DNA from: Escherichia coli
GTDB lineage: Bacteria > Pseudomonadota > Gammaproteobacteria > Enterobacterales > Enterobacteriaceae
Reading direction: 5' to 3' (one strand)
NCBI RefSeq assembly: GCF_030384885.1
Contig: NZ_CP128613.1
Length of the DNA: 64,000 bases
The translations under genes were made by a program, and so were the position numbers. Positions 26,290 through 48,524 of the stretch are shown here, in pieces (position 1 is the stretch's first letter; each line of letters opens with the position of its first letter). The notes below the pieces were generated by a model. That model worked only from the letters and a program-made list of their open reading frames with translations. It did not search any database and had not been told where the DNA came from.

Positions 26290-26416
26290 TCTGTGCCATT
26301 AATCTGATACTCCCACGTTGTTCGGGAGTTTTTATCCGCTTCTGGACATTTTCTCCACAGAACAATCGTTAGCCCGGAAGGTCGAATCTGTGAATATTTT
26401 TTCACGGACGAAACAG

Positions 26417-27034
26417 ATGAAAGCTTCACTGGCGTTGTTCAGTCTTCTGACGGTATTTACCAGTTACTCCTTAAAATCTCCCGCTGTTCCACCAACCGTG
26501 GTACAAATCCAGGCCAACACCAATCTTGCCATCGCAGACGGTGCCAGACAGCAAATTGGCAGCACGCTATTTTACGATCCGGCGTATGTGCAGCTTACTT
26601 ATCCTGGCGGTGATGTCCCGCAAGAACGCGGCGTATGTTCCGATGTGGTAATCCGTGCATTGCGCAGCCAGAAGGTCGATTTGCAGAAACTGGTGCACGA
26701 AGATATGGCGAAGAATTTTGCTGCGTACCCGCAAAAATGGCAGTTAAAGCGCCCGGACAGCAACATCGATCACCGTCGGGTGCCTAATCTGGAAACCTGG
26801 TTTACCCGCCACGATAAAACACGCCCCACCAGCAAAAACGCCAGTGACTACCAAGCGGGCGATATTGTCTCCTGGCGATTAGATAATGGGCTGGCACATA
26901 TTGGGGTGGTTTCAGATGGCTTCGCCCGCGACGGTACGCCGCTGGTGATACATAACATTGGCGCAGGCGCGCAGGAAGAAGACGTGCTGTTTAGCTGGCG
27001 GATGGTGGGGCATTATCGGTATTTTGCTAAATGA
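26417..27034 (+). CDS. yijF: DUF1287-family secreted protein
   Basis: Start at ATG 26417 (MKASLALFSLLTVFTSYS signal-like N-terminus), 205 aa. Confidence 0.8.
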   Translation: MKASLALFSLLTVFTSYSLKSPAVPPTVVQIQANTNLAIADGARQQIGSTLFYDPAYVQLTYPGGDVPQERGVCSDVVIRALRSQKVDLQKLVHEDMAKNFAAYPQKWQLKRPDSNIDHRRVPNLETWFTRHDKTRPTSKNASDYQAGDIVSWRLDNGLAHIGVVSDGFARDGTPLVIHNIGAGAQEEDVLFSWRMVGHYRYFAK

Positions 27035-27058
27035 GCGCTCGCCCCACCTGTAAAAAAT

Positions 27059-27964
27059 TCAGATCCTTTTTACGCTGACGGCTTCTTTTTTCTTACGGCT
27101 CACCAGCGCCAGTGCCAGCACAATCAGCACAATGCCGCTACCTTCAACGGTCCCCGGATTTTCACCGAGCAGCCACCAGGAAAAGAGTACGCCGCAAACA
27201 GGAACTGCTAACGTGCTTAGGCTGGCGATACTGGCGGGTAAGTTTTTCAATACAAACAGCCATAAGCTCCAGGCCAGCGCTGTCGCCAGAATCGCACTGT
27301 AGGCCAGCGCCCAGAACACGGTGGGCTGCCAGTCAATTTCACGTTGCGGCACCAGCCAAGCGACCACGCTCATCACCAGCGCCGCATAAAGCATCTGCCA
27401 GGATGTTAACGACAATAAATCCACGCGTGGATGGCGGGCGTATAGGCGTTTCGCGACAATCGCGCTCGCCCCCCAACTAACACCGGAGAGGATCGCCAGC
27501 ATGGCGCTTTTCATCGAAGAGAAATCGAGTTGCCACGGCTGCAACACCAAAAATAAGCCGAAAGCGGCAATCAGAATCGCCAAATATTGCCCGCGTCGCA
27601 GGCGTTCACCGAGAAACAACGCGGCGAAAATCACCACCCAGAATGGCATGGTATAGCTCAGGATTGCCACCTTCCCTGCTCCGCCGCTCACCAGCGCCCA
27701 CTGCGCCAGGCCAACCATCCCGCAGGTTTGTAACAGGGCAATGGCTAAGGTGTATTTAAACGGCGTCGGGCGCATTCCGCGACCACGTAATAAAAGGACG
27801 ATGAATAAAACGAGAGCGCCGAAAATGCAGCGTAAAGCGGTAAAGTCGAAGGCACCGATGTAGCTGGTGACTTGCTTCATGAAAATCCAGCTATAACTCC
27901 AGATAAGTGTGAGCACAACCAGGCCACTGATTGCCAGTGGGTTGCTCTTTCCTGCGGCAGACAT
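27059..27964 (-). CDS. yijE: EamA/DMT-family inner membrane transporter
   Basis: Ten-helix hydrophobic profile; start chosen at internal Met, start uncertain. Confidence 0.8.
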
Positions 27965-28057
27965 GAGAGATCCAGTGTGTAGTTTTCCTGTGGACACTAT
28001 ACGCTGGTAAAGAAACTTCAGCGACTGCCAGACAGACAGTCGCTGAAGAAGGTTAGA

Positions 28058-30292
<2,235 letters not shown>

Positions 30293-30565
30293 TTATAATT
30301 GAATTAATCCACGGATGCGATAGTTGAGATCTTACATATTGTTGGTTAAAGAGATGTAGATCAAATTGATCGTAATTAAGACTTTTTGATTATGTCCGAT
30401 TTCGGACAAATGCTTTATAAAAAAGGTTTTAGCTTCGTAAGCTTCAAGAAATGAGGGAGAAAACAAGGCTGACTACCTTATTTTCTCACTCGCATTTCGA
30501 GGCAGCATTTTGTGCTCTGTTTAAAATTTGTGATCACAGTGTGATTTTCACAAAAGGCGCACTAT

Positions 30566-31459
<894 letters not shown>

Positions 31460-31510
31460 TTACCTCATCAATCGCTTGTAGTTATATGTTGTGTTGTGCA
31501 CATCTATCCG

Positions 31511-31535
31511 TTTAGACGTCCAGATGTAAAGATGA
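31511..31535. promoter_or_regulatory. MetJ operator (met-box repeats) upstream of metF
   Basis: Tandem 8-bp AGACGTCT-like repeats ttagacgtccagatgtaaagatg just upstream of the metF start. Confidence 0.5.
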
Positions 31536-31808
31536 AGGAAAAGCTGAAGGGCGTCAACCGAAAAATGACCAATGATGGTGAGGAAAAATCAGGGAAGATG
31601 AAAAAAATTCAGGATAAAGGCCAAAGTTCCTCGTACCTGAACATGTGGAATATACCTCATTTAAGATGATATTTATTTGTTTAATTATTTTTTCTATTAA
31701 CCGGTGCAACGAGTGTTAAAGCGTGTAATTTTAGGATTATATCAATAGTCACGGTTATACAAACAGTGATAATTTATGAAATAATTTTATTTACCAGAGG
31801 AATAGCGC

Positions 31809-32783
31809 ATGTATCTTAATACTCAAGTTCAATATAATAAGTTAAATAAAGATGAAAAAAAGATCCTGTTGTTACAAAAGCTAGCCCATTTAACTGATTT
31901 TACTTTTGACAGAATAGAGACATTTTCAGCATTTGGACAATCTACTGAAACAGGTGTTTTTAAATATAAAGATGGCAATGAATTTGTTGTTGTCCCCGGG
32001 GATACAGTAATATTAGGGTGGGATGCCAGTCTCAATAATATGGATGGTCCGACAAAACAAGAATTTGAAGAGATGTTGGAACCAGAAGGTTTAGATTTGA
32101 ATAATTATCTCACCGACTCTTGCACACCTGTCAGGAAGGTTACAATTTCCCCGATGCTGGTTGAAAGAAACGTTCACGCCGAACCAAGTTGGAAGGAAGT
32201 ATCTCTTACGGACCCCCGCATCACAGAGAACAGCATGCTGCAAAAATTTCTGTCTGATTATATGGAAAAAATTAATCCTGGAGTTCACGAATTAAACGCA
32301 AGATTGAGATTACAATATATAGATGGGGATTTATTTGCACAAATATATGAATCAATTAGCTATGATGAGTTACTTCAAAATATCCAAAGCAATAGTTTTG
32401 ATCTTCCGAGCGAAGATGAATGGGAATATTTATGTGGCGGTGGTTCCAGGACACTCTGGCGCTGGGGGAATAATTTCGACTATCAAATGAAAATCCCATT
32501 TATTACTTCAGAAGAACCAACAACCTGGGATATAGAATGGCCTAATCAGTTTGGGTTGCAGATTGCATTTGATCCCTATCTTCAGGAAATTATTAATGAT
32601 AAAGATATTCTTCTGAAAGGTGGCGATGGTGGGTGCAATCTCTGCGGAGGTGCTAATGTTGTATTAGGATTCTTGCCTGTGGCAACTTATTACAAAGGAT
32701 ATAATAAACATACGGACGAATTAGAATATATGGATGACATTGGAGACAATTATACTTCTTATCGCAGAATAATTCGTTTATGA
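31809..32783 (+). CDS. Hypothetical protein, AT-rich gene; weak FGE-sulfatase (SUMF1)-like motif
   Basis: 324 aa ORF with AGAGGA RBS; motif LPSEDEWEYLCGGGSRTLWRWGNNFD resembles the FGE-domain EWEY...GG core; no other FGE signatures recognised. Confidence 0.6.
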   Translation: MYLNTQVQYNKLNKDEKKILLLQKLAHLTDFTFDRIETFSAFGQSTETGVFKYKDGNEFVVVPGDTVILGWDASLNNMDGPTKQEFEEMLEPEGLDLNNYLTDSCTPVRKVTISPMLVERNVHAEPSWKEVSLTDPRITENSMLQKFLSDYMEKINPGVHELNARLRLQYIDGDLFAQIYESISYDELLQNIQSNSFDLPSEDEWEYLCGGGSRTLWRWGNNFDYQMKIPFITSEEPTTWDIEWPNQFGLQIAFDPYLQEIINDKDILLKGGDGGCNLCGGANVVLGFLPVATYYKGYNKHTDELEYMDDIGDNYTSYRRIIRL

Positions 32784-32864
32784 GTAAAAATTATATTTCA
32801 GGACAAGAAGTTATGCTCGAGTCAAGCTAATGAATTGCTTAACGCAAGGAATAAAAACGTATTG

Positions 32865-34346
32865 ATGAACACTGGGAATTTCGAGTCGATACAAATCATG
32901 ATCGCCGCGCAAGAGTGGCGTAGCCTGCCGCTGCATCTGCGTTTGTATCAGGCTTTTCGTCAGTTGGTGATTTCTGGCGCGTTGTCTGATGGCGCAAAAC
33001 TGCCGTCCGCTCGCGCACTGGCCCAGCAACTGCACCTTTCCAGAGATACCATCGAAAATGCCTATTCCCAGCTCCACCGCGACGGTTTTATGGCTCGCAG
33101 GCAGGGGGCCGGGAGTTTCGCCAGCCGCCAGGGGATACCGCATATTCAGGGCCAGCATGCGCAACCACCCTCGCCCGGACAAGTACCGGCTTTAAGCGCT
33201 CGCTGGCAGCCAATTGCCGATCGCGCAGTCTCTTTCGATGCCCGCCAGATGCAGACCTTTACGCTTGGCCTGCCGGAAACGCGAAACTTCCCGCTAAACA
33301 TTTGGCAGAACTTTTCCCGCCAGATCCAACGTGAGCAGGCGCATACGCTGATGTTAAATAGCGATCCGCAGGGCGAGCCACAGCTGCGCCAGCAAATTGC
33401 GCATTACCTTAATTTTGAACGCGGCGCGAAGGTAGATGCCGGGCAGATTGTGATTGTCAGCGGCGCACGGCAGGCGTTCTGGCTGTGCGGGCAACTGCTG
33501 GCAGAGGCCGGACAGTCGGTGGCGATGGAAAATCCGGGCTATCCCGGCGCGCGTCAGGCGTTTTCTGCCGCACAGCTTAATCTTCTTCCCGTTGAAGTGG
33601 ATGACGCCGGGATCCGGGTGGATAAACTGCCGCCCGCGCCGCTGGTTTACGTCACGCCCTCGCACCAGTTTCCTTCCGGTCATTTGCTCACGCTGGCGCG
33701 GCGTCATGCCCTGATTGCCTGGGCGCAGGCGCACAATGCATGGATTATCGAAGACGACTACGACAGCGAATTTCACTACACCAGCGCGCCCGTCGCCTGT
33801 CTGCAAGGGTTAGACTGCGAGCAACGCACCCTGTATGTCGGCACTTTCAGCAAAACGCTCTATCCCGGCCTGCGCATCGGTTATCTGGTGGTGCCGACGT
33901 CGCTGGCTGCGCACTTTGCCGCCGCGCGTAATTTGCTTGATGGCGCAACGCCTGCGTTATCCCAACTAACGCTGGCGCGATTTATCGAGTCCGGTCATTT
34001 TGCCGCCCATATTCGCAACATGCGCAGTATGTACGCAGTGCGACAGGCGAGCCTGGCAGAGGCTATTCATCAACACTTAAGTGAATGGGTCACGCCAGTG
34101 GTGACATCCGGTGGGTTACAAATGCCCTGCTGGCTGCATGAAGGTATTGATGAGCAACAGACGCTAAATGCCGCGCGCCGCGCCGGGTTAAACATCGCCG
34201 GAATGCGCCAGTTCTGGCTGACGCACCCCGCGCCCGCGGGCTGGCTGCTGGGATTTGCCGCCTTTACCCCCTACGAGATTGAACAGGGCGTCAAGCGTCT
34301 GCGGGCTGCATTATGCACTGAAAACGTGCGCCCAGCCGGGTCATAA
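32865..34346 (+). CDS. MocR/GntR-family regulator with fused PLP aminotransferase-like domain
   Basis: N-terminal GntR HTH (…LPSARALAQQLHLSRDTIENAYSQLHRDGFMARRQGAGSFAS…) and large C-terminal fold-type-I-like domain; start ambiguous (TTG 32835, ATG 32865 or 32898). Confidence 0.8.
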   Translation: MNTGNFESIQIMIAAQEWRSLPLHLRLYQAFRQLVISGALSDGAKLPSARALAQQLHLSRDTIENAYSQLHRDGFMARRQGAGSFASRQGIPHIQGQHAQPPSPGQVPALSARWQPIADRAVSFDARQMQTFTLGLPETRNFPLNIWQNFSRQIQREQAHTLMLNSDPQGEPQLRQQIAHYLNFERGAKVDAGQIVIVSGARQAFWLCGQLLAEAGQSVAMENPGYPGARQAFSAAQLNLLPVEVDDAGIRVDKLPPAPLVYVTPSHQFPSGHLLTLARRHALIAWAQAHNAWIIEDDYDSEFHYTSAPVACLQGLDCEQRTLYVGTFSKTLYPGLRIGYLVVPTSLAAHFAAARNLLDGATPALSQLTLARFIESGHFAAHIRNMRSMYAVRQASLAEAIHQHLSEWVTPVVTSGGLQMPCWLHEGIDEQQTLNAARRAGLNIAGMRQFWLTHPAPAGWLLGFAAFTPYEIEQGVKRLRAALCTENVRPAGS

Positions 34347-35397
34347 TCTCATACGGGATGGTGTTGCAGGCAGCGGCAACCTGTTCCAGCGTCTGGCCTG
34401 CGCCAATAAATTCCACCTTATCGCCCGCTGTCGGCGTGACGGCGCTGGCATCGACCATAAAGCTGTCCATACAAACCCGCCCCAATACCGGTAACCGCAC
34501 GCCGCGCCAGCATACGCCCGCCGGAGGACGCATATTTCGCGGAACGCCATCCGCGTAACCCGCGGATATCGTAGCGATACGCAGCGGACGCGTGGCGGTA
34601 ATCGTACTGCCATAGCCAACTGGCGTTCCCGCCGGGACATCCTGCACGCGCAGAATAGTTAGCGTCAGCGTAAAAGCCGGTTTTAGCGGCCTGGAAAACC
34701 ACGGCTGGGCGACGCCAAACAGCGCAATCCCCGGACGGCAGAGATCTTCCCGCCAACCTGGTTGCAAAAACATTCCGCAGGAGTTCGCCAGCGAAAATCG
34801 GCTGCTGGGGAAAACCGTTTTTGCCTGCTGGAATAGCGCGTGTTGCGCCACATTTAACGCATGATCCGGCCTGTCGGCGTTCGCCAGATGGCTGATGATA
34901 TAGTCCGGCGCAGGCCAGTTACGCTCACGAAATATCGCCGCCAGACGCATCAGTTGTTGCGGCATCACGCCCAGCCGCGACATACCGGAATCGAGCTGGA
35001 TCATCACCGCACGCCGCTGCTGGCGCGTTTCCAGTAACGTAAGCCACGCCATCACCTGGTCAATGGAATTGAGCAATGGCGTGATCTGCTGCGCGTAACA
35101 ATACGCCATCGCCTCCGGCATAACCCCATTAAGCACTACCACCATCGCATCAGTGGGCAGGATTTTACGCAGCGCCACGCCCTCCGAAAGCTGTGCCACA
35201 AAAAAGATCCGGCAGTTCGCCGCATACAGGGCGGGCGCAATCGCCTCCGCCCCCAGACCATAGGCATTGGCTTTCAACACCGCGCCACATTGCGCAGGGG
35301 CAACATGGCGCGCCAGCGTGCGATAATTATCGACGATGGCGGCGAGATTGACGCACATAACGCCGCACGCCGCCTGGATTTCAGTAGAAGTCATCAT
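34291..35397 (-). CDS. Alanine racemase-family PLP enzyme (fold type III)
   Basis: PLP-lysine motif AVLKANAYGLGA and C-terminal GRVCMDSFMVD motif; start ATG overlaps the stop of the upstream SHMT-like gene (ATGA). Confidence 0.85.
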   Translation of the reverse strand: MMTSTEIQAACGVMCVNLAAIVDNYRTLARHVAPAQCGAVLKANAYGLGAEAIAPALYAANCRIFFVAQLSEGVALRKILPTDAMVVVLNGVMPEAMAYCYAQQITPLLNSIDQVMAWLTLLETRQQRRAVMIQLDSGMSRLGVMPQQLMRLAAIFRERNWPAPDYIISHLANADRPDHALNVAQHALFQQAKTVFPSSRFSLANSCGMFLQPGWREDLCRPGIALFGVAQPWFSRPLKPAFTLTLTILRVQDVPAGTPVGYGSTITATRPLRIATISAGYADGVPRNMRPPAGVCWRGVRLPVLGRVCMDSFMVDASAVTPTAGDKVEFIGAGQTLEQVAAACNTIPYEIMTRLGARFQCIMQPADA

Positions 35398-36632
35398 TGA
35401 TAAGACAACGGGTAGCGGTTGGTTAGTTGTATTACTTTTTGCTCAATATCGGCGCAAATGCCTGCGATATCTGACGAGTTGATGGCGAAAATGATTTCAC
35501 TTATCCAGTCAGCAATAAGCACAAAATCATCCGCCTTCATCCCACGCGTGGTGCAGGCCGCGCTGCCAATACGGACCCCGGAGGTAATCGACGGCGGCTG
35601 CGGATCGCCCGGCAGGGTGTTTTTATTGACCGTGATCCCCGCCAGTTCGAGAAAGTACTCCACCTGTGCGCCGGTTAACCCCTGCGGGCGCAGGTCGATA
35701 ATCCCCAGATGGCAGTCGGTGCCGCCCGTTAACAGCGTCAGACCGCGCTGCGCCAGTTGCTGGCACATCGCCTGCGCATTGTCGATAACCTACCCGGCGT
35801 AACGTTTAAATTCTGGTTGTAATGCCTCGCCAAGCGCCACCGCTTTCGCCGCGATAACGTGCATCAACGGCCCGCCCTGCAAACCGGGAAAGATGGCGCT
35901 GTCGATTTTTTTCGCAAGCCTGGCGTCATTGGTGAGGATCATGCCGCCGCGCGGCCCGCGCAACGTTTTATGCGTGGTGGTGGTGACCACATCAGCATAC
36001 GCCAGCGGCGAAGGAAAACAGCCGCCCGCCACCAGCCCGGCAAAGTGCGCCATATCCACCAGCAAAATGGCATCAACGGCATCGGCAATGCGGCGAAAAC
36101 GGGCAAAATCATAGTGGCGTGGATAAGCCGATCCTCCGGCAATAATTAACCGTGGGCGCTCGCGTAGCGCGATCATCTCGACCTCATCCATATCAATCAG
36201 GCCACTATGGGCATCGACGCCATAGTGAAAGGCGTTAAACCATTTGCCGGATTGATTGACCGGAGAACCGTGCGTGAGATGCCCGCCGCATTGCAGGCTC
36301 ATGCCAAGAATTTTGTCGCCGGGCTTCAGCAACGCCAGATAGACCGCCTGATTCGCCTGGCTGCCGGAGTGAGGCTGCACATTGACGTAACGCGCGCCAA
36401 AGAGCTGCTGCGCGCGGGTTATCGCCAGCATCTCAACCTCATCAATAAACTTACAGCCGCCGTAATAGCGATGCTGGTAATAACCTTCGGCGTATTTATT
36501 GGTTAACACCGACCCCTGCGCCGCGAGAACGGCGGGGCTTACGAAATTCTCCGAGGCAATCAGTTCCAGCGACTGCTGCTGGCGCTGTTGCTCCTGGTTA
36601 ATCAATGCAAAAAGTGGATCGTTATTTATCAT
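35394..36632 (-). pseudogene. Serine hydroxymethyltransferase (GlyA)-like gene interrupted by an in-frame TAG at 35790-35792
   Basis: N-terminal ORF (…[31 protein letters not shown]…[14 protein letters not shown]…PEFKRYAG*) and C-terminal ORF (VIDNAQAM…TSGVRIGSAA…) are in the same frame, separated only by TAG where GlyA has Gln. Confidence 0.75.
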
Positions 36633-36864
36633 GCGCTTCCCCCGCAAATTCATCATGCGATGATTTTCGCAGGGAAAACCTCGTCCGCACCCTGCCACTT
36701 TTTAGACTGAGCGCAGACCACCTATGTCGTTTTACTTAAAAGAAGAGGGAAGAAGGCTCCAGGCATCTCCATATGCGATTCTGGTTGGTAATACATCATA
36801 TTCCAGCTGCTCTTATCCGCCTACGTTATTGCATATACGGATAAGGCAGCCTCAATACGTACTT

Positions 36865-38430
36865 TTACTTGATATCTTTCACGCGCATACCGTTGATCTG
36901 TTCATCCGTGATGGTATTACCCGCTTTAAAGTAATCAACCACCGCGTGATAAACGTAATAACCGCCCGTCGTATTGCGCGCTTTACCCTCGGTAAACGCG
37001 GTAAAACCATCTCCACCATCAGCAAGGAAACTCTGAGTGGCAATGTGGTAAACCGTCGCATCTTCAATCGGTTCGCCATTCAGAGTCAGCGAGATAACCC
37101 GCTGACCAACCGGCTTGCTGCTGTCGTACTTCATTTCCAGGCCTTTCGATACCTGTAAAACGCCATTACTTAAACTTGCGCCGTGTTCCATCAAACTGCG
37201 TAATTGTTTACCCGTGAGTTCCATCGTCACCAGTTCGTTGGGGAACGGGAAGGTACTGATGACGCCACCCATCGTAATTGCACCCGCCGGGATCTCATTG
37301 CGGATACCGCCAGAGTTGGTTAACGCCAACTGGGTATTTTTACCCGCCGCTGCCAGCAAAGCGTCCGCCGCCAGATTCCCGAGAGAAGCCGATTCACCAT
37401 AGGCACGTTTCAATTCAACTGGCGATTGCGCCACCGTTTGCTGCACGACTTCATCCAGCTTTTTATTCCAACTATCAATCACCTGTTTTGTTTGCGGATC
37501 GGGCTTCCACTCGTCGGCGTAAAGGGTTTTAAGCTCGAAGTTTTTCACCGTAAAAGTGTGCGGCTTCTCTTTGTAGTCTAGAACCAGTTTACCCACATCA
37601 ATCCCGCCGCTGTCAGTGGAGAGGATTAACGTATTGCCGACTTTAATCGGTTCCGGCGTACCCACATGTGCATGCCCGGTGATCAAAATATCCAGCCCTT
37701 TCACCTGACTTGCCGTCTGAATATCTTTATCCAGTGCGCGGCGCACATCTGTGCCCCCCATACTGGACTGGCGGGCCGGAACACCTTCGTGAATCAGCGC
37801 AACGGTCAAATCAACCTTGCCTTTGAGTTCATCGATATAACGTTGTAGCCATTTAATTTCATCACGCGCCTCAATACCCACTCGCGTTGCCGCAGATACC
37901 GTATCATTAAAGGCAAATACACCGTGCAAACCAATCACGCCAATTTTCACGCCGTCTTTTTCAATGATGGTATAGGGCTTATCCCAGAATGATTTACTGC
38001 TGTTCTGATAAAAAACATTACCCTGCACAATCGGGAATTTTGCCTGACTCAACTGTAATAACGTATTGTCCCAGCCGTGATCAAATTCATGATTACCTAT
38101 AGTGGCCGCATCGAACGGCATGGTATTCATAATATCGATAATCGCCTTGCCTTTAGTCAGGCTGCTAATATACGGCCCGGTAAAATAGTCACCCGCATCA
38201 AAAAACCAGGTCGCTTTGTTTTTAGCTTTTTCTTGTTTAACAAGCGTAGTGATATTTGCCCAGCCGCCAATATCTCGTTTACCGTCAGCAATCCACGGCA
38301 CTTTATAAGGCTCTACATGTGCATGGAGGTCGTTGGTATAAATGATGGTGACATCTTTGGCGCAAGCCCAAAACGGCAGTGTTAATGCGATACCCGCAGC
38401 AAGCATTTTAATTTTCATAAACAATCCCAT
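36865..38430 (-). CDS. UshA/CpdB-family periplasmic nucleotidase (paralog A)
   Basis: Signal peptide [20 protein letters not shown]; metallophosphatase motifs [26 protein letters not shown]; C-terminal 5'-nucleotidase-type domain (…[13 protein letters not shown]…). Confidence 0.85.
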
Positions 38431-38550
38431 CCAGTGAGATAAAGGATTGCTACATTACGTTCTGAAAGGCTTTTTTATGTGAGAATACTCACATCCAGAG
38501 GCGATAACTGTAGGACAAAATCAACGACCTTATGAAATCGTTGGTGATAT

Positions 38551-39678
38551 ATGTCAAATCTGTTTGCGATTAATGTCTGTAAAACGTTCGGTTGTCGAAA
38601 TTTGGGATTGGCCTCATCGGAAGATTACAGTTGGCCAGACTATAAACTGGGTTTTCCGGCACTGCACTGCCAGGCATGCGGAAGTTACCCCCCTTTGTTT
38701 GATGAACAACAATTTCGTGACTGGTTGTCAGTTCACATGACTGCGTGTGCCATAGAAACAGGGCATTTTTGTCCATCATGCTATTGTAAAGAAAAGATTT
38801 TTTATGGCCACAACCCGCAGGGAACACAACGCGTTCAATGCCGTTCATGCAAAAAAGTCTGGACTCCGAAACAGCAGCCAGCAAGAGAAATTACGTATCC
38901 CCAGTCCATTGAAACCGTTCAACTGTTCATGCCCTTTCAAGGAGCCAGCGCAGTACAAAAGCTCTATGTTTTAGTCAGTCTTGACGCCACTCGTGGCAAC
39001 ATCCTTCATCTCTCCACGAATTATACGCAACATCAGACAGGAGACAGTCTGCGGTACAGTTACAGAGGCAATACAGAACCAACTGAGCACCATAGCGATA
39101 TTGCGCAGAGGGTAGATATGCGTGAAGCACAATTCTTGCGCCGGAGCCAGTTCGATGAAATTCAGTATGGCAGTGCTGTGCTCAAGCGCAACGGCAAGGG
39201 AGCCATACTACGCCCGGTTATCACGGCACACGGGCATTTCAGAATACTGAAAATCCGCTTTCCACATGTCAAAACGCATATCATTTCACACGAATGTTTT
39301 CTGAGAGGCGCAATTATTACAGCCTGGGCAGATCAGTTCCGCCAACAACAAGGCGAACTTTGGTTCGTAGAGGAAGAAATCAGCGACCGTAATGCTGATA
39401 TTCCCTGGCATTTTCAGGGAACGACATACCATGGTTGGTGGCAAAATCAGTGGCAACGCTGGGGGCAGGGGAATAACAGCAAGATGGTCTGCCTGCTCAC
39501 AGGAGTCTCCTTAGAAAGGGGCGCAAATGTTTCTCTGGCAACCAGTCGTTGCTTTATCACATGGCTGACAGACCAACACGACTTTACCCAAAGCGCGTTA
39601 TTATCCGCAGGTCGCGTAACGAAAATGCTGACCTCACTGGCGTTAAAATACAATGAATCGCTCACTCCATCTTGTTAG
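38551..39678 (+). CDS. Hypothetical cysteine-rich protein with N-terminal zinc-ribbon motifs (transposase-like zinc ribbon?)
   Basis: 375 aa; C-x4-C, C-x2-C, C-x2-C…C-x2-C spacing including FYGHNPQGTQRVQCRSCKKVW, resembling IS1 InsA / IS1595-type ribbons; remainder unassigned. Confidence 0.6.
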   Translation: MSNLFAINVCKTFGCRNLGLASSEDYSWPDYKLGFPALHCQACGSYPPLFDEQQFRDWLSVHMTACAIETGHFCPSCYCKEKIFYGHNPQGTQRVQCRSCKKVWTPKQQPAREITYPQSIETVQLFMPFQGASAVQKLYVLVSLDATRGNILHLSTNYTQHQTGDSLRYSYRGNTEPTEHHSDIAQRVDMREAQFLRRSQFDEIQYGSAVLKRNGKGAILRPVITAHGHFRILKIRFPHVKTHIISHECFLRGAIITAWADQFRQQQGELWFVEEEISDRNADIPWHFQGTTYHGWWQNQWQRWGQGNNSKMVCLLTGVSLERGANVSLATSRCFITWLTDQHDFTQSALLSAGRVTKMLTSLALKYNESLTPSC

Positions 39679-39907
39679 TCAATACACTCGACAAACGACC
39701 ATAAATTAATGGGATCACTATTTCTCATTTAATTAAATATATGAATGTATGACTGAAAAATATAATCACAGTCAATGTTTAATTAATAACATTATTTGTT
39801 ACTAAGATCACATAATACTTTCCTGACCTATGTTTACATAAAAATAAGACACGGTGTTCCTTTTATTTAAATAATTCAACCAATGTAACAACCCCTATCA
39901 AGGAGGG

Positions 39908-41461
39908 ATGATGAGAACTGTATTTACGACTTTATCAGTCATATTCAGCGTGATGTTTTCTCACAGTATACTAGCTCAGGACGTTACTATTTATTATACG
40001 AATGATATTCACGCACATGTCAATCCGGCAAAAATTCCCGCTGTTGATAAGAACAGACTTGTAGGTGGTATGGCTAATATTGCAGGCATCGTTAATGAAG
40101 CGAAGAAAAAAAACAAAGATGTCTTTTTCTTTGATGCAGGCGACTATTTTACCGGTCCGTATATCAGTACCCTGACCAAAGGTGAAGCTATTATTGATAT
40201 CATGAACACCATGCCCTTTGATGCGGTGTCCGTTGGTAATCACGAGTTCGATCACGGCGTGCCCAATATGGTATCTCAGTTATCAAAAGCAAAATTCCCC
40301 ATTCTGCTGGGAAATATTTACTACACCGATACAAATAAACCAGTTTGGGATCATCCGTGGACCATTATCGAAAAAGATGGTTTAAAGATTGGTGTGATTG
40401 GATTGCATGGTGCATTCGCTTTCTATGATACAGTCGCGGCAAAAGCACGTGAAGGCGTAGAAGCCAGAGACGAAATTAAATATTTAAATAAAGCACTTGC
40501 AGAATTAAAAGGTAAAGTCGACATTACCGTTTTGCTAATTCACGAAGGTGTTCCGGCGCGTCAATCAAGCTTTGGTAGTAAAGATGTGGAGCGGCTACTA
40601 CAGGCAGATATTGAGACAGCTAAAAAAGTGAATGGTGTTGATGTCTTAATTACCGGTCACGCACATGTCGGAACACCGCAACCAATAAAAGTTAATAACA
40701 CATTAATTGTATCTACCGATGCATACGGCACCGACATCGGAAAACTTGTGCTTGATTACAATCCGAAAACAAAGAAAATTGATAGTTATAATGGTGAGTT
40801 AATCACCATCTTTGCAGATCAATTTAAACCTGACACCATCGTTCAAAATACTATCGATAAATGGAGCATAAAGCTTAACAAAATAACACAGGAAGTTGTC
40901 GGCCATTCTCCCGTAGTTTTAACACGTGAGTATGGCAGTTCTTCTTCTACCGGTAACCTTATTCTAGATGCAATGATGGAAAAAACACCTGATGCCATTG
41001 CCGGATTTCAAAATAGCGGTGGGATGCGAGCTGATTTTCCTAAAGGTGATATCACACTGGGAGATGTTATTAGCACATTCCCCTTTAATAATGACCTCAT
41101 CGAGATGGATTTGACGGGCCGCGATCTCAAATCATTGATGACGCATGCAACCAATCTAACTAACGGTGTGTTACAGGTTTCAAAAAGCGTTGCGGTTGTC
41201 TATGACAGCAAAAAACCACTCAACCAACGGTTAATCTCTTTCACCATTAACGGCAAACCCGTGGAAGATAATCAAACATATCGTATTGCCACGCACTCCT
41301 TTTGTGCCAGTGGTGGTGACGGTTTTGAAGCATTTTTGAATGGAAAAAATGTGAAGACGATACCGGGAACAACCTCGGCGGAATCTATCATCGATTATTT
41401 CAAAAATCATAAACCTGTCACCCCAGACTTAACTAAACGAGTCATGGACGTCGCCAAATAA
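39908..41461 (+). CDS. UshA/CpdB-family periplasmic nucleotidase (paralog B, most divergent)
   Basis: Signal peptide, same metallophosphatase motif set ([26 protein letters not shown]); AGGAGG RBS at 39901. Confidence 0.85.
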   Translation: MMRTVFTTLSVIFSVMFSHSILAQDVTIYYTNDIHAHVNPAKIPAVDKNRLVGGMANIAGIVNEAKKKNKDVFFFDAGDYFTGPYISTLTKGEAIIDIMNTMPFDAVSVGNHEFDHGVPNMVSQLSKAKFPILLGNIYYTDTNKPVWDHPWTIIEKDGLKIGVIGLHGAFAFYDTVAAKAREGVEARDEIKYLNKALAELKGKVDITVLLIHEGVPARQSSFGSKDVERLLQADIETAKKVNGVDVLITGHAHVGTPQPIKVNNTLIVSTDAYGTDIGKLVLDYNPKTKKIDSYNGELITIFADQFKPDTIVQNTIDKWSIKLNKITQEVVGHSPVVLTREYGSSSSTGNLILDAMMEKTPDAIAGFQNSGGMRADFPKGDITLGDVISTFPFNNDLIEMDLTGRDLKSLMTHATNLTNGVLQVSKSVAVVYDSKKPLNQRLISFTINGKPVEDNQTYRIATHSFCASGGDGFEAFLNGKNVKTIPGTTSAESIIDYFKNHKPVTPDLTKRVMDVAK

Positions 41462-41495
41462 AATATCATTTATCAGTCTATTTATTTAACAAGGA

Positions 41496-43121
41496 ATGCG
41501 AATGAAAACAGTGCAGCGTACTTTACTTGCCGCAACATTGCTGACTATTTTTTCGGTCTCGGTCATGGCGCAGGATGTCACGATTATTTATACAAATGAT
41601 CTTCACGCTCATGTGGATTCTTATAAAGTGCCGTATATCGCAGACGGAAAACGCGACATTGGCGGCTTTGCCAATATATCTACTTTAGTAAAACAAGAGA
41701 AAGCGAAAAATAAAGCCACCTTTTATTTTGATGCTGGAGACTATTTCACCGGCCCTTATATCAGCAGTCTGACAAAGGGCGAAGCAATAATTGACATTAT
41801 GAATACCATGCCTTTTGACGCAGTATCAATCGGTAATCATGAGTTTGACCATGGCTGGGATAATGCCCTGCGACAATTAAGCAAAGCGAATTTTCCTGTT
41901 TTATTGGGCAATGTTTATCATAAAGAGAGTGAAAAACCCTTCTGGAACAAGCCCTACACCATCCTGGAAAAAGATGGCATCAAGATTGGTATTATTGGGC
42001 TACACGGCGTATTTGCATTTAATGATACGGTCTCGGAGCTCTCTCTCCAGGGACTCGATAATGACAATAATAACCGCTTTGATAAATCTTCCGAGACCCT
42101 TAAGAATCAGGGGATTGAAGCACGTGATGAAGTGAAGTATTTGCAGCATTATATCGACGAGTTACGTGATAAGGTTGACCTCACTGTGGCGCTGGTTCAT
42201 GAAGGCGTTCCGGCGCGTCAGTCCAGCATTGGCAATACAGATGTTAGACGCGCTCTTGATAAAGATATTCAAACCGCTAGCAAGGTGAAAGGATTGGATA
42301 TTCTGATTACCGGGCATGCCCACGTCGGAACGCCAGAACCAATCAAAGTCGGCAACACCTTAATCCTTTCGACTGATAGTGGCGGTATCGATATTGGTAA
42401 ATTAGTCCTTGATGTCAACCCTACAGCTCGTACCCATAAAATGAAGAGCTTTGAGCTGAAAACAGTTTATGCCGATGAATGGATACCCGATCCAACGACA
42501 CAAAAAGTTATCAATGGCTGGAATAAAAAACTGGCGGATATTGTACGCCAACCAGTGGGTGAATCATCGATTGCATTAACTCGCGCCTATGGTGAGTCAT
42601 CGCAACTAGGCAACCTGTTTACCGATGCAATGCTTGTCGCTGCTCCGACTGCACAGATTGCATTGATAAACTCCGGCAGCTTACGTGCGGATATAAATGC
42701 AGGCACGATTACCTTTGGCGACATTACCAGTACATTCCCCTTCAAGAATGAACTTACTGAAATGGATCTCAGCGGTAAGGATCTGCGTAACCTACTGGAA
42801 CACGGGGCATCGCTTACCAATGGCATCCTGCAAATGTCAAAAGGCGCAGAAATGCGCTATACCCCGCAGAAACCAGTAGGTCAGCGCATAGTATCTTTTA
42901 AAATTAATGGTGAAGAGATCGTTGATACGAATATTTACCATGTTGCAACAACGACTTTCCTTGCACTGGGGGGCGATGGTTTTCTGGCATTCAAAGAAGG
43001 GAAAAATGTTCAGGTCCGCGCCGGAAAAAACATGTCCGATGTCGTGATCGATTATTTGAAGAAAGGCCACAAGATTACGCCTGCACAGGTAAATGAAATG
43101 CGGGTGGACGTTAGCAAATAA
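41496..43121 (+). CDS. UshA/CpdB-family periplasmic nucleotidase (paralog C, with ~27 aa Asn/Asp-rich insert)
   Basis: Signal peptide; same motif set; insert ELSLQGLDNDNNNRFDKSSETLKNQG absent from paralogs A and B; real start probably ATG 41502. Confidence 0.85.
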   Translation: MRMKTVQRTLLAATLLTIFSVSVMAQDVTIIYTNDLHAHVDSYKVPYIADGKRDIGGFANISTLVKQEKAKNKATFYFDAGDYFTGPYISSLTKGEAIIDIMNTMPFDAVSIGNHEFDHGWDNALRQLSKANFPVLLGNVYHKESEKPFWNKPYTILEKDGIKIGIIGLHGVFAFNDTVSELSLQGLDNDNNNRFDKSSETLKNQGIEARDEVKYLQHYIDELRDKVDLTVALVHEGVPARQSSIGNTDVRRALDKDIQTASKVKGLDILITGHAHVGTPEPIKVGNTLILSTDSGGIDIGKLVLDVNPTARTHKMKSFELKTVYADEWIPDPTTQKVINGWNKKLADIVRQPVGESSIALTRAYGESSQLGNLFTDAMLVAAPTAQIALINSGSLRADINAGTITFGDITSTFPFKNELTEMDLSGKDLRNLLEHGASLTNGILQMSKGAEMRYTPQKPVGQRIVSFKINGEEIVDTNIYHVATTTFLALGGDGFLAFKEGKNVQVRAGKNMSDVVIDYLKKGHKITPAQVNEMRVDVSK

Positions 43122-43133
43122 TAAAAAAATTAT

Positions 43134-43165
43134 AATGCCATTCATTCACTGAATGGCATTATTTT
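43134..43165 (+). terminator. Terminator-like hairpin after nucleotidase paralog C
   Basis: atgccattca-ttcac-tgaatggcat followed by T-rich tract. Confidence 0.5.
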
Positions 43166-43198
43166 CTCTAAATCAACAATAGATAATGAGATATATTT

Positions 43199-44059
43199 AT
43201 GTGTATAAAAAAGCACGGGATAGCTTTATCGATTCTATTAATACCTTGCATTGGAAACGCTCAGAAAATTAAAAGTGAGGAAGGCTGGTTACATCAAAGC
43301 TTGAATGTCATTGGTCGCACAGACTCTCGCTTTGGCCCAAGGCTGACTAACGACCTCTACCCTGAATATACTGTAGCAGGAAGAAAAGACTGGTTTGATT
43401 TTTATGGTTATGTTGATCTACCAAAATTCTTTGGCGTCGGCAGTCACTATGATGTTGGGATCTGGGATGAGGGCTCACCACTATTTACGGAAATAGAACC
43501 TCGGTTTTCCATTGACAAATTGACCGGATTAAATCTTGCGTTCGGCCCTTTTAAAGAATGGTTCATTGCAAACAACTATGTCTATGATATGGGTGACAAC
43601 CAGTCATCCCGGCAAAGTACATGGTATATGGGGCTTGGTACAGATATCGACACGGGTCTACCAATTAAGCTTTCTGCCAATATATACGCCAAGTATCAGT
43701 GGCAAAACTATGGTGCCGCTAATGAAAATGAATGGGACGGATATCGATTCAAAATAAAATATAGCATTCCTCTTACCCATTTATTCGGAGGGCGATTGGT
43801 ATACAATAGTTTTACTAACTTTGATTTTGGATCCGATCTTGCGGACAAATCACACAATAATAAACGAACCAGTAATGCTATTGCTTCAAGCCATATCCTT
43901 TCCCTGCTATATGAACACTGGAAATTTGCATTTACACTACGTTATTTTCACAACGGTGGACAATGGAATGCTGGGGAGAAAGTTAACTTCGGAGATGGTC
44001 CATTTGAATTAAAAAACACAGGATGGGGAACCTATACTACTATTGGTTATCAATTTTAA
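43199..44059 (+). CDS. Tsx-family nucleoside-specific outer-membrane channel paralog
   Basis: Signal peptide, C-terminal Phe; long colinear blocks matching Tsx as recalled (…KDWFDFYGY…[12 protein letters not shown]…[14 protein letters not shown]…[26 protein letters not shown]…). Confidence 0.85.
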
Positions 44060-44275
44060 ATCAGGTGATGTTTTAGATATTTTTACTTAATGCCATTTTG
44101 TAATTGTCATAAATAACTTCACCATTCACACTGTGAATTCATCGCTCAACACAAAAGCCCCCTTATTACCGGGGCACTGACCAAAGGCAAAATGACAATC
44201 AATCACCACCTCCGCAGGAGGTGGTTTAGAGGTGACAACAAAAGCTGGCAACTGCCAGCTTTTGTTCAATAATCA

Positions 44276-46708
44276 CTACAACAACTGCGCCAGACGGTTA
44301 ATATCCGACTGAATCGCCCCGGCGGTGACGTCGCGCCCTGCGCCTGGCCCACGGATCACCAGCGGGTTGTCGCGATACCAGCGGCTTTCGATGGCAAAGA
44401 CGTTATCGCACGGTAGTAGTGATGCCAGCGGATGGTCTTCTCGCACCGCTTCCACGCCTACTCGCGCTTTGCCGTTAGCATCGAAACGCGCCACGTAGCG
44501 CAACACCAGCCCCATTTCACGGGCCGCTTCCAACCGTTGTACCATCTGCTCATTAAGTTCATCGCCATTTTCAAAGAAATGGTCGATGCTGCCACCTTCG
44601 CAATGGGTTGGCACCAGTGATTCAACACGCACCTGGTCCGGTTCAATGTTGTAACCCGCTTCACGCGCCAGAATCACCAGCTTGCGCATCACATCTTTGC
44701 CGGAGAGGTCATCACGCGGGTCAGGTTCAGTTAAGCCCTGCTGCCACGCCTGATCCACCAGCTCAGTAAACGGCACGCTACCGTCGAATTGCAGGAACAG
44801 CCAGGAGAGCGTGCCGGAGAAGATCCCGCTGATCGACAAAATAGTGTCGCCGCTGTCGATCAGATCGCGCACGGTATGGTTGATCGGCAAACCTGCGCCG
44901 ACGGTGGCGTTGTATAGCCAGTGACGCCCGGTTTTTTCGAACGCGTCGTGGATCTGTCGATATTTATTGCTGTCGCTGGCTCCCGCCAGTTTGTTGGCAC
45001 TGATGACGTGGAAACCGTGGCTGGCGAAATCGAGATACTGATCAGCAAGCTGCTGGCTGGCAGTAACGTCCAGCACCACTAAATCATCATACGGATGGGC
45101 ACGCATCCACAGGAACAGCGACTCTTCATCCTGTTCGACGGCTTCATCATTAAAGAAGGCTAGCGCACGGCTGGCGTCCAGCCCGTCATAGCTCAACAGG
45201 CTGCGACGGCTGTCCACCACGCCTGCCAGCACAAATTCAAAGCCGGTGCGCGCCGAGAGCGTGCTCTGCTCACGGGCGAACAGTTCCAGCCAGCGGGAAC
45301 CGATATTGCCCTTACCGAACAATACCAGGCCGATGCGTTTTTCTGCGCGGAAGACGGACTGATGCAGCCCCTGAATCAGGCTTTCGGTAGGTCCGGTACG
45401 CAGTACTGCCACCAGGCTGATGCCGTCATCGGACTGCCAGGTAAATTCGACCGGCTGGCCTTTCAGTTGCTGCCAGAAGCGGTGGCAATGCAGCGGGTTA
45501 CGGGTGACGCCTGCACCAACCATCGCCACCAGCGCCAGCCCCTGACGCAGGCGCAGTTCGCCAGGTAATCCTGCTTCGTCGAGGATTTTCAGCGCACTAT
45601 CGGCCACTTCCGAGGTGTAGCAAAATTGCAGCAACTGGCGATCGTTATGCACGCCAACCGCCAGTGGGCGCACCTGAGCACGTTTCAGGATTTGGTCGAT
45701 CTCTTTATGCGCCAGTTTGAAATCCTGACTGGCGGGCACCTGAAACTCAATCAAACAGACATCATCGTGGCTGGTGACAATACGCGCGCCAGTACCGGAA
45801 GCCAGCACGCGTTCAATGCGCGTGGAACCTTGATCCGGCGTGTAGCTACAGCGCAGCTGCAGGTCGATTTCACTGCCAGAAACTGGCTGTAAAGTACGGG
45901 CGTGAAGAACGGGGGCCGCCAGACGCGCCAGTTCACTGGCTTCATCAAGACGCAGCAATGGCAGCAGGCAGGCATCTTTCACTTTACGCGGGTCAGCGCT
46001 GTATACCCCGGCGACGTCGCTCCAGATGGTTACGCGGGAAACTCCCGCCAGCGCACCGATTTGTGTCGCGGAATAGTCGGAACCGTTACGCCCCAGCAGC
46101 ACCGTTTCACCGGCGTTGTTACGGCTGATAAACCCGGTCACCACCAGACGTTTGCCCGGATGTTGTACCAGTAGCTGTTGCAGCAACGGGTAAGAAAGCC
46201 CTTCATCAACCTGCGGCTGCGCGGCGCGTTCAGCGCGTAAAAACTCGCGGGCATCAAGCCAGGCCGCAGGCAATCCTTGTTGATTAAGTACCGCAGACAT
46301 CAGGCGCGCCGACCACACTTCACCGTGGCCCACCACTTCCGCATACACCGCATCGTTAATACCGCTGTCGAGCAGCGCCGCCAGGCGTTCCAGATCGCTG
46401 ACAAAAGCGCTAATGAGGCTATCGGCTTCTTCGGCGGGTAGCAGGCCGCTAATCAGATCGCACTGATAGCGACGCAGCGTTTGTTGAACCTGATGCGCAG
46501 AGAGACGATCGGTCTGGCTTAGTTTCAACCAGTTAATCAACTGGTTAGTGGTGCTACCGGCGGCGGAAACCACCATCATATCGTCAGGCTGAGAGTACTC
46601 CGCCATAATGCCCGCGACACGCAAATAACACTTCACATCAGCCAGACTACTGCCACCAAATTTATGCAGTTGACGACCTTTCGCCCCTGCCTGCGCAATC
46701 ACACTCAT
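44276..46708 (-). CDS. metL: Bifunctional aspartokinase II / homoserine dehydrogenase II
   Basis: 810 aa, MSVIAQAGAKGRQLHKFGGSSLADVKCYLRVAGIMAEY... Confidence 0.95.
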   Translation of the reverse strand: MSVIAQAGAKGRQLHKFGGSSLADVKCYLRVAGIMAEYSQPDDMMVVSAAGSTTNQLINWLKLSQTDRLSAHQVQQTLRRYQCDLISGLLPAEEADSLISAFVSDLERLAALLDSGINDAVYAEVVGHGEVWSARLMSAVLNQQGLPAAWLDAREFLRAERAAQPQVDEGLSYPLLQQLLVQHPGKRLVVTGFISRNNAGETVLLGRNGSDYSATQIGALAGVSRVTIWSDVAGVYSADPRKVKDACLLPLLRLDEASELARLAAPVLHARTLQPVSGSEIDLQLRCSYTPDQGSTRIERVLASGTGARIVTSHDDVCLIEFQVPASQDFKLAHKEIDQILKRAQVRPLAVGVHNDRQLLQFCYTSEVADSALKILDEAGLPGELRLRQGLALVAMVGAGVTRNPLHCHRFWQQLKGQPVEFTWQSDDGISLVAVLRTGPTESLIQGLHQSVFRAEKRIGLVLFGKGNIGSRWLELFAREQSTLSARTGFEFVLAGVVDSRRSLLSYDGLDASRALAFFNDEAVEQDEESLFLWMRAHPYDDLVVLDVTASQQLADQYLDFASHGFHVISANKLAGASDSNKYRQIHDAFEKTGRHWLYNATVGAGLPINHTVRDLIDSGDTILSISGIFSGTLSWLFLQFDGSVPFTELVDQAWQQGLTEPDPRDDLSGKDVMRKLVILAREAGYNIEPDQVRVESLVPTHCEGGSIDHFFENGDELNEQMVQRLEAAREMGLVLRYVARFDANGKARVGVEAVREDHPLASLLPCDNVFAIESRWYRDNPLVIRGPGAGRDVTAGAIQSDINRLAQLL

Positions 46709-46710
46709 TT

Positions 46711-47871: not shown

Positions 47872-48147
47872 GTGATGAAGTTCCCTGGGCTTGGTCGGTG
47901 AAATGTCAGGCACCAGAGTAAACATTGTGTTAATGGACGTCAATACATCTGGACATCTAAACTTCTTTGCGTATAGATTGAGCAAATCCCAAATAGCCGT
48001 TAAAATTATATGCATTATCACGCCGACAGGTGCATTACACGATGTCACGGTAACGCCTGTACGGTAAACTATGCGGGTTTACGGTCAGTACCCACATAAA
48101 TTGTGTGGTCTGATCTCAATTTATTGACGAAGAGGATTAAGTATCTC
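47872..48147. promoter_or_regulatory. metB / metJ divergent promoter region with met-box-like repeats
   Basis: acatctggacatctaaac contains AGATGT repeats typical of MetJ boxes; between divergent metB and metJ. Confidence 0.45.
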
Positions 48148-48465
48148 ATGGCTGAATGGAGCGGCGAATATATCAGCCCATACGCTGAGCACGGCAAGAA
48201 GAGTGAACAAGTCAAAAAGATTACGGTTTCCATTCCTCTTAAGGTGTTAAAAATCCTCACCGATGAACGCACGCGTCGTCAGGTGAACAACCTGCGTCAC
48301 GCTACCAACAGCGAGCTGCTGTGCGAAGCGTTTCTGCATGCCTTTACCGGGCAACCTCTGCCGGATGATGCCGACCTGCGTAAAGAGCGCAGCGACGAAA
48401 TCCCGGAAGCGGCAAAAGAGATCATGCGTGAGATGGGGATTAACCCGGAAACGTGGGAATACTAA
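48148..48465 (+). CDS. metJ: Methionine repressor MetJ
   Basis: [66 protein letters not shown]..., 105 aa. Confidence 0.95.
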
Positions 48466-48524
48466 AGCGGAAAAGAGCGGCGCGGAGTTAACCAGCCGCT
48501 TTTTTCATACATGGACGTTTAACT

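Follow-up and report, generated by a model that had tools for sequence, protein, structure and literature searches.

A possible MocR-controlled module of additional serine hydroxymethyltransferase and alanine racemase genes in the metL-metF gap of Escherichia coli 2013C-4282

Three genes in the metL-metF gap

The window analysed here is a stretch of 64,000 nucleotides of Escherichia coli DNA (contig NZ_CP128613.1), which is 100% identical to the chromosome of strain 2013C-4282, a human stool isolate. Between metL and metF, where K-12-like strains have a short intergenic region only, it carries accessory DNA that includes a module of ~3.9 kb with three genes. These are mocR, which encodes a transcription factor of the MocR/PdxR type; alr3, which specifies a third alanine racemase; and glyA2, a paralogue of the gene for serine hydroxymethyltransferase (SHMT). 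The features of the module are the following, where ORF denotes an open reading frame.

32865..34346, plus strand: mocR, MocR/PdxR-type transcription factor gene (ORF and RefSeq coding sequence); 493 codons, intact
34291..34346: 56-nt overlap of mocR and alr3 at their convergent 3' ends
34291..35397, minus strand: alr3, third alanine racemase; 368 codons, intact ORF
35394..35397, minus strand: ATGA overlap of the glyA2 stop and alr3 start codons (translational coupling), read from the sequence
35394..35768, minus strand: 124-codon ORF for a C-terminal SHMT fragment, beginning 21 nt past the TAG (from the ORF list)
35394..36632, minus strand: glyA2, SHMT paralogue, a pseudogene in E. coli 2013C-4282; 412 codons, from ATG 36632 to TGA 35394
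35790..35792, minus strand: in-frame TAG at codon 281 of 412 of glyA2, an inactivating lesion; CAG (Gln) in relatives
36636..36643, minus strand: Shine-Dalgarno-like GGGGGAAG before ATG 36632
36653 and 36656, minus strand: alternative in-frame start codons (ATG) upstream of the glyA2 start
36663..36668, minus strand: putative -10 hexamer GAAAAT, 24 nt 3' of the second operator box, without a recognisable -35
36693..36721, minus strand: putative MocR operator GTGGTCTGC-N14-GTGGCA, 29 bp; its GTGG boxes are direct repeats with a 23-bp register and centres near -61 and -40

The extent of the module is marked by sequence conservation. About 90 nt 5' of glyA2 are conserved among E. coli, Salmonella, contigs of Escherichia fergusonii type and the enteric locus L005, and merely ~25 nt are conserved 5' of mocR; beyond these points the sequences are unrelated. 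The three genes have a GC content of 58%, compared with 43% in the neighbouring nucleotidase block. An overlap of 4 nt or 1 nt between glyA2 and alr3 was kept in the Salmonella, L005 and E. fergusonii-type loci, where the Shine-Dalgarno-like element of glyA2 reads CGGGGGAA or CGGGGAAA in orthologous positions. The 3' ends of mocR and alr3 overlap to a comparable degree in L005 and L094, and a promoter and terminator scan of this convergent junction detected no terminator between the two genes.

A preliminary description of this DNA, made from its sequence, had presented the SHMT and racemase genes as a translationally coupled pair convergent with a MocR gene. The ATGA overlap and the convergent arrangement were borne out, but the stop codon within the SHMT gene had been overlooked, and the pair is broken in E. 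coli 2013C-4282. The position of codon 281 is occupied by Gln in every relative that was aligned, and the RefSeq annotation of glyA2 reads 'pseudo, internal stop'. The truncated product of 280 residues (P0021) represents a protein cluster of 60 member sequences, which suggests that the stop is real and not an assembly error. The uninterrupted frame of a functional SHMT gene is thus missing, and glyA2 is a pseudogene in this strain. Because of TAG281, translation ends ~400 nt short of the coupled alr3 start, barring re-initiation at ATG 35768, the first codon of the 124-codon ORF. It is a matter of speculation that re-initiation at this ATG could keep ribosomes arriving at the alr3 start. The expression of alr3 in E. 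coli 2013C-4282 is probably reduced by the loss of coupling and by polarity.

The two enzymes and the regulator

SHMT profile scores were computed with the stop codon of glyA2 read as Gln. The product matched the SHMT model NF000586 with 610.9 bits (cut-off 335), which places it in the GlyA family (NF000586 / PF00464), and it matched solved SHMTs with 470-520 bits. It is 55% identical to E. coli GlyA. The lysine that binds pyridoxal 5'-phosphate (PLP) in SHMT is K222 in the motif TTTTHK, and S35, Y55, E57, Y64/Y65, H126, R363 and the GGPLMH loop (E. coli GlyA numbering) are all kept. Clade-specific changes at positions conserved among SHMTs are few, the main one being P60Y (EGYPGK to EGYYQH) at a proline that is otherwise invariant in 99 of 99 relatives. 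Judging by these residues, glyA2 is predicted to encode a conventional tetrahydrofolate-dependent SHMT. The fluorothreonine transaldolase model TIGR04506 gave 153.5 bits against a cut-off of 650, and the match was confined to model positions 8-385 of 609, leaving the extra C-terminal domain unmatched.

As another candidate function we considered that of an alpha-methylserine hydroxymethyltransferase (mSHMT; EC 2.1.2.7 type, as in TRIS cluster II), which was rejected since the glyA2 product lacks the substitutions by which the TRIS-plasmid mSHMT stands out. Where the Teo1 mSHMT carries Y55T, Y64F/Y65H, H228T, GGPLMH to GSAHLA and TSG to WKG, the glyA2 product keeps the SHMT residues. The two proteins are 51% identical, in a comparison with one reference sequence from a TRIS-degrading plasmid whose function is its authors' prediction.

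The second enzyme carries the PLP-lysine motif VLKANAYGLG that had been pointed out in the preliminary description, at residues 40-49 of alr3 (window positions 35251-35280), with K42 as the PLP lysine. K42, R142, H170, R221, Y262, M310/D311 and Y349 align with the catalytic residues of solved racemases. The protein scored 234.1 bits with the alanine racemase model TIGR00492 (cut-off 168) and belongs to this family (TIGR00492; PF01168 and PF00842). Its best solved relative was the alpha-proteobacterial Bartonella Alr 3kw3 with 293.8 bits, whereas the E. coli and Pseudomonas Alr/DadX entries reached about 126-162 bits and the broad-spectrum racemase structures only 69-79 bits, which leaves alr3 outside the broad-spectrum group. 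It likewise stayed below the cut-offs of the DadX model (156.6 bits against 600) and of the VanT models (182.8 against 460 and 108.4 against 900). Together with the 55% identity of the glyA2 product to GlyA, the proximity of alr3 to the Bartonella enzyme is in agreement with the earlier statement that both enzymes lie outside the core glyA/alr/dadX repertoire.

The third racemase of Salmonella Enteritidis at the metL-metF locus is equal in length to alr3 and 84% identical to it. SEN3897 ('Alr3', ROD34 region, S. Enteritidis) racemises L- and D-alanine in vitro, its expression in LB is too weak for the rescue of an alr dadX double mutant, and its deletion leads to invasion and virulence phenotypes; 3KW3 is given as the best template for this protein, and neither the SHMT nor the regulator is mentioned in the paper (PMC6040060). 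We equate SEN3897 with the alr3 orthologue through an indirect link, namely the same best template 3KW3 and the 84% identity at the same locus. By analogy with this orthologue, in which the activity was measured, the E. coli protein is predicted to be a genuine alanine racemase. In E. coli HS, the name 'third alanine racemase' refers to a different gene, metC.

A search of genome contigs for racemases by exact peptide patterns, which was too strict to be informative on species distribution, returned only a 50%-identical match from the Enterobacteriaceae and distant Clostridia racemases. No SHMT or MocR genes were found next to the nearest non-enteric racemases (50% identity), and the pairing of SHMT and racemase therefore appears to be confined to the enteric clade. 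The nearest such relative (L009, 7276-9122; Enterobacteriaceae bacterium B14) is encoded by a gene that overlaps an upstream RimL-type acetyltransferase gene by 4 nt, with no MocR gene within 8 kb. The RimL-type acetyltransferase family recurs in published PdxR/PdxW regulons.

The regulator combines a GntR winged-helix domain with an aminotransferase-like PLP domain of fold-type I, which is the architecture of the MocR subfamily, and its putative PLP lysine is K330 in TFSK. It matched NF052282 (MocR/PdxR) over residues 22-479 with 428.7 bits, above the equivalog cut-off of 320, and the rhizopine MocR model with 424.9 bits (cut-off 650), a score near that for PdxR. The Pfam models GntR and Aminotran_1_2 matched the MocR orthologues, including one that is 98% identical.

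Operator, relatives and decay of the module

Directly upstream of glyA2 lies the putative operator for MocR. Its boxes are invariant and in register in eight loci, including the benE-glyA operons of Bordetella and of a metagenome contig, and in Mesorhizobium the GGTCTGC box is a perfect inverted repeat. The spacing between the second box and the putative -10 hexamer is likewise the same in relatives, where the hexamer reads TAGAAT (Bordetella) or TAGACT (L100). A consensus scan found no sigma-70 consensus promoter before glyA2. An Rfam scan of positions 32500-37200 at E<=1 gave 0 matches, and the conserved 5' region is therefore not accounted for by any riboswitch or leader RNA family. From the box positions (about -61 and -40) and the lack of a -35, we infer that MocR acts as a class II-type activator.

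The inferred -10 hexamer puts the transcription start at about 36656, which coincides with the A of a conserved ATGATG, in frame and 21-24 nt upstream of the ATG 36632 with its Shine-Dalgarno-like element. A leaderless SHMT isoform of 419/420 residues is conceivable. RefSeq places the glyA2 start at ATG 36653 in E. coli 2013C-4282 and uses a shorter form in other genomes.

Outside the enterics, three of the top SHMT matches were checked (P0023, P0025 and P0026; 64-65% identical); these, from Bordetella bronchiseptica, a Mesorhizobium and the metagenome contig L100, all adjoin a MocR gene whose product is 46-48% identical to that of the module. In two of these three loci, a benE-SHMT operon is convergent with the MocR gene, and the benE promoters bear both operator boxes in the same register and at the same distance to the -10. 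The comparative genomics study PMC5320631 describes a 'PdxR (Proteobacteria)' regulog in which GlyA stands with BenE, PdxK, COG325, ArgD and BioF, and which covers Bordetella bronchiseptica and a member of the Enterobacterales. With an orthologous regulator beside a GlyA-family gene and an operator shared with these relatives, the module matches this regulog. Contig L100 has the operator core a second time (8607-8632), between the start of its MocR gene and an Aminotran_5 gene in divergent orientation, which suggests that the regulon there includes a further PLP enzyme.

In a simple neighbour-joining (NJ) analysis of a small sample, the enteric SHMT clade was the sister of the proteobacterial group from Bordetella, Mesorhizobium and the metagenome in 195 of 200 bootstraps once contig L102 was removed. 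A first NJ tree, which grouped the enteric SHMTs with Firmicute-type proteins of 418 aa, was discarded as an artefact of this contig. L102 (2531 nt, low coverage), the source of a '72% identical' SHMT match (P0020), looks chimeric: its 5' part (rpiB-glyA) is Firmicute-like, and the remainder consists of the 3' end of an enteric glyA2 and an alr3 that is 97% identical.

Among 5426 complete E. coli genomes the trio was found in three, each with a different nonsense lesion: the SHMT gene has a stop at codon 281 in 2013C-4282 and at codon 20 in GF4-3, and the racemase gene has one at codon 349 in RMDEC465. An orthologous trio occupies the metL-metF site in Salmonella enterica (SHMT 93-94% and racemase 83-84% identical), and the same site is occupied in contigs whose SHMT is listed by NCBI under E. 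fergusonii. A fourth enteric context, L005, has an 87%-identical copy elsewhere, beside genes resembling those of integrative and conjugative elements and without nucleotidases. Orientation and overlaps of the trio are kept in all four contexts. That the three genes travel together in this way, and that the operator before glyA2 is conserved as far as Bordetella, indicates that MocR is functionally linked to glyA2-alr3, as the preliminary description had supposed from the usual association of MocR regulators with PLP-enzyme genes. In some 705 complete E. coli genomes that lack the trio, the match to the query was limited to the neighbouring 5'-nucleotidase gene; one such locus, which we inspected, consists of metF, nucleotidase, a hypothetical gene and metL.

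Further lesions were found beyond E. coli, namely a mocR frameshift (Salmonella L004), a stop at mocR codon 89 (Salmonella L093, a locus retrieved via an SHMT variant recorded on 275 contigs) and a stop at racemase codon 114 in an E. fergusonii-type contig (L095). Independent lesions are frequent: in two E. coli strains they hit glyA2, in two Salmonella lineages mocR, and alr3 is affected once in E. coli and once among the E. fergusonii-type contigs. Intact trios are present in S. Enteritidis-type contigs, in E. fergusonii-type contigs and in L005. Across E. coli, Salmonella, the E. fergusonii-type contigs and L005, the pairwise ratios of nonsynonymous to synonymous substitution rates (dN/dS) were 0.07-0.09 for the SHMT, 0.17-0.31 for the racemase and 0.08-0.15 for MocR. 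These low values point to purifying selection through most of the trio's history, with the stop codons being recent.

The 87% nucleotide identity to Salmonella had raised the idea of vertical inheritance. This was weakened by the synonymous divergence (dS) between E. coli and Salmonella L093, which is 0.43-0.52 for the trio and 1.16 for the adjacent metF. Since the dS of the trio is less than half that of metF, the module appears to have passed from one genus to the other since their split, although the locus is shared. A tblastn search of the PLSDB plasmids returned no copy above 64% identity, and the module was not found on plasmids there. The core flanks (yijF-katG-metF and metL; 26394-36747 and 44277-48951) are 97.4-98.3% identical to contigs of the L094 type (SHMT2 listed under E. 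fergusonii), whereas their identity to two other E. coli genomes is only 95.6-96.4%; the whole region may have been exchanged between E. coli and lineages listed as E. fergusonii.

The metL-metF gap (31600-44250) is a mosaic of three blocks that differ in composition, with the trio as the second. The first is a stretch of 44-50% GC with a gene for a hypothetical protein of 324 aa (31809-32783, plus strand), directly upstream of mocR. This protein matches no NCBIfam family and has a weak partial match to FGE-sulfatase (PF03781; residues 184-226, i-Evalue 6e-4). Its gene is found with the trio in two E. coli genomes as well as in the E. fergusonii-type contigs but is missing from GF4-3, Salmonella and L005, for which reason we place it outside the module. 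The third block (43% GC) holds three paralogous 5'-nucleotidase genes, the gene for a 'cytoplasmic protein' of 375 aa and a Tsx-like nucleoside porin gene, and looks like a nucleotide-scavenging set. The 375-aa protein (38551-39678, plus strand), encoded between nucleotidase genes, shows a marginal resemblance to an InsA/IS1-type zinc ribbon (NCBIfam E 4e-4; Pfam E 0.04), and E. coli, Salmonella and the E. fergusonii-type contigs all have its gene beside the first nucleotidase gene.

Interpretation of the module and comparison with known systems

We give an even chance to the reading that the module is a MocR-controlled operon of spare copies of two essential PLP enzymes, which is decaying in E. 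coli. A MocR protein of the PdxR (Proteobacteria) group would bind the direct-repeat operator, which overlaps the -35 position of a promoter without a -35 hexamer of its own, and the bound regulator would most likely activate the bicistronic, translationally coupled glyA2-alr3. The signal, sensed by the aminotransferase-like PLP domain, would be the PLP status of the cell or a PLP-amine aldimine. The PLP status is suggested by the content of the regulog, which holds genes for B6 salvage, transport and homeostasis along with other essential PLP enzymes. The SHMT would then supply one-carbon units and glycine, and the racemase D-alanine for the cell wall. The low expression of SEN3897 in LB and its failure to rescue the alr dadX mutant fit an activator-dependent operon that is not induced. 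In E. coli 2013C-4282, at most the regulator and the racemase would still be functional, glyA2 having been lost through the change of Gln281 to TAG.

Several observations weigh against this reading. The near-equal score of the rhizopine MocR model makes the NCBIfam 'PdxR' label weak and non-discriminating evidence, no pdx genes were found beside the trio in any context examined, as control of pdx genes would have led one to expect, and the 64-kb window contains a single copy of the operator, that before glyA2. The regulator is convergent and has no conserved promoter of its own, whereas the targets of MocR proteins are usually divergent neighbours. Activation as opposed to repression is deduced from the operator position and the missing -35, and the role of a spare enzyme under PLP limitation is a presumed one. 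In the SHMT comparison, a Firmicute-type GlyA group is equally close (63% identity). Finally, the frequency of independent lesions implies that the function of the module is often dispensable.

For the present-day function in E. coli 2013C-4282, a serious alternative, to which we assign a smaller but appreciable probability, is that the module is an evolutionary relic that lies idle in E. coli and survives for want of time for its removal, its intact genes being unexpressed or useless passengers. The rarity of the trio in complete E. coli genomes (3 of 5426), with a premature stop in each and all of them different, speaks for it, as do the additional independent lesions in Salmonella and E. 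fergusonii-type contigs; the nonsense codon in glyA2 should moreover depress the coupled alr3 downstream, and the Salmonella racemase cannot sustain growth without alr and dadX (PMC6040060). Against it stand the low dN/dS of all three genes, which indicates long-term selection, the 493- and 368-codon frames that remain open in E. coli 2013C-4282, the intact trios of the S. Enteritidis and E. fergusonii types, and the invasion and virulence phenotypes of the Salmonella deletion (PMC6040060). The relic would in any case concern the current status of the module, and is compatible with the mechanism of the spare-copy operon as an ancestral one. It is improbable, in our view, that the enzymes form a catabolic pair. 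In such a pair, the substrate of the SHMT would be an alpha-alkylserine of the alpha-methylserine type, which it would cleave, or else D-alanine or D-serine; conversion of the resulting D-amino acid to its L counterpart would fall to the racemase, and detection of the substrate, as an aldimine with PLP, to MocR. Sensing of amines as aldimines is known from GabR and other MocR regulators, and the few private substitutions of the SHMT clade, mainly EGYPGK to EGYYQH, could be counted in favour of the pair. So could its chemical logic and the precedent that mSHMTs yield D-amino acids and cluster with D-amino-acid enzymes (PMC10848231). The replacements characteristic of the TRIS-plasmid mSHMT are, however, all absent at 51% identity, the canonical SHMT model is passed by a wide margin, the contexts examined contain no transporter, dehydratase or folate-recycling gene accompanying the trio, and the Salmonella racemase acts as an ordinary alanine racemase. 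For the beta-hydroxy-amino-acid or D-amino-acid conversion of the preliminary description, taken as catabolism, nothing was found in favour.

The same description had raised an SHMT-like transaldolase that would act on a nucleoside-derived aldehyde in cooperation with the neighbouring 5'-nucleotidases. Mere proximity to the three 5'-nucleotidase genes and the Tsx-like porin gene in E. coli 2013C-4282 prompts this idea, which we consider hardly credible in view of the score of 153.5 bits against 650 with TIGR04506 and the full set of folate and serine site residues of SHMT. Nor is the nucleotidase neighbourhood conserved: no nucleotidases accompany the trio in L005, the reverse holds for ~705 complete E. 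coli genomes, which have the nucleotidase but not the trio, and the two blocks differ in GC content (58% versus 43%). Quite improbable, though not to the same degree, is a module that serves as a replacement set responsive to damage or antimetabolites and is induced upon the poisoning of PLP enzymes. The PLP domain of MocR would report the poisoning. Candidate poisons, which hit SHMT and alanine racemase alike, are 2-aminoacrylate stress and compounds of the D-cycloserine, haloalanine or O-carbamoyl-D-serine type, and the copies switched on would possibly be less sensitive to them. Such a set, if real, would explain the coupling of an SHMT and a racemase, enzymes that share no common pathway. 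D-cycloserine and D-fluoroalanine inactivate SHMT as well. As circumstantial support, the targets of 2-aminoacrylate documented in vivo in Salmonella include GlyA, Alr and DadX (PMC12172467).

Already known were the racemase, which has been characterised in Salmonella, and the connection of the regulator with a GlyA paralogue, which comparative genomics had predicted. New here are the view of the three genes as one unit, with its operator and promoter and its recurrent decay, and the addition of an alanine racemase to a PdxR-type regulon. The annotation is corrected in that the SHMT gene is a pseudogene rather than part of an active coupled pair, a correction of limited practical value. The third alanine racemase of Salmonella is now tied to SHMT and MocR partners that had been overlooked. 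The result suggests that its failure to rescue D-alanine auxotrophy stems from its place in an activator-dependent operon that remains uninduced in LB, which bears on D-alanine-auxotrophic vaccine and containment strains of Salmonella and of E. fergusonii with an intact trio. The role of GlyA paralogues in PdxR-type regulons, and the reason for the coupling of one of them to a racemase, can now be tested in strains with intact trios.

Among known systems, SEN3897/Alr3 (Ray et al. 2018, PMC6040060) is a close counterpart, with the same metL-metF site, an SHMT gene upstream and a convergent MocR gene; it differs in that the trio is intact in S. Enteritidis-type contigs, whereas the SHMT gene of E. 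coli 2013C-4282 has a stop codon. The PdxR (Proteobacteria) regulog of Suvorova & Rodionov 2016 (PMC5320631) resembles the module through the Bordetella bronchiseptica benE-glyA operon with its convergent homologous MocR gene and shared boxes. Unlike that regulog, the enteric module has no BenE, PdxK or COG325 and instead has a racemase gene 3' of that for the SHMT; the regulog rows consulted do not contain Alr (COG787). The TRIS-plasmid cluster of an mSHMT with a D-serine dehydratase (PMC10848231) likewise pairs an SHMT paralogue with a D-amino-acid enzyme, but the module lacks the active-site substitutions as well as the partners folD, purU and dsdX. With E. coli GlyA, Alr and DadX, the module enzymes share folds, catalytic residues and predicted reactions, while the module is accessory, has a GC content of 58% and its own MocR, and is present in 3 of 5426 complete E. 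coli genomes. GabR and PdxR of Firmicutes and Actinobacteria, which are characterised MocR activators, bind two short repeats about two helical turns apart over the -35 of their target. Their domain architecture and PLP lysine motif are those of the module regulator, and the operator layout is alike; in contrast, their targets gabTD or pdxST are divergent, whereas the regulator of the module is convergent with its targets, which encode PLP-dependent enzymes.

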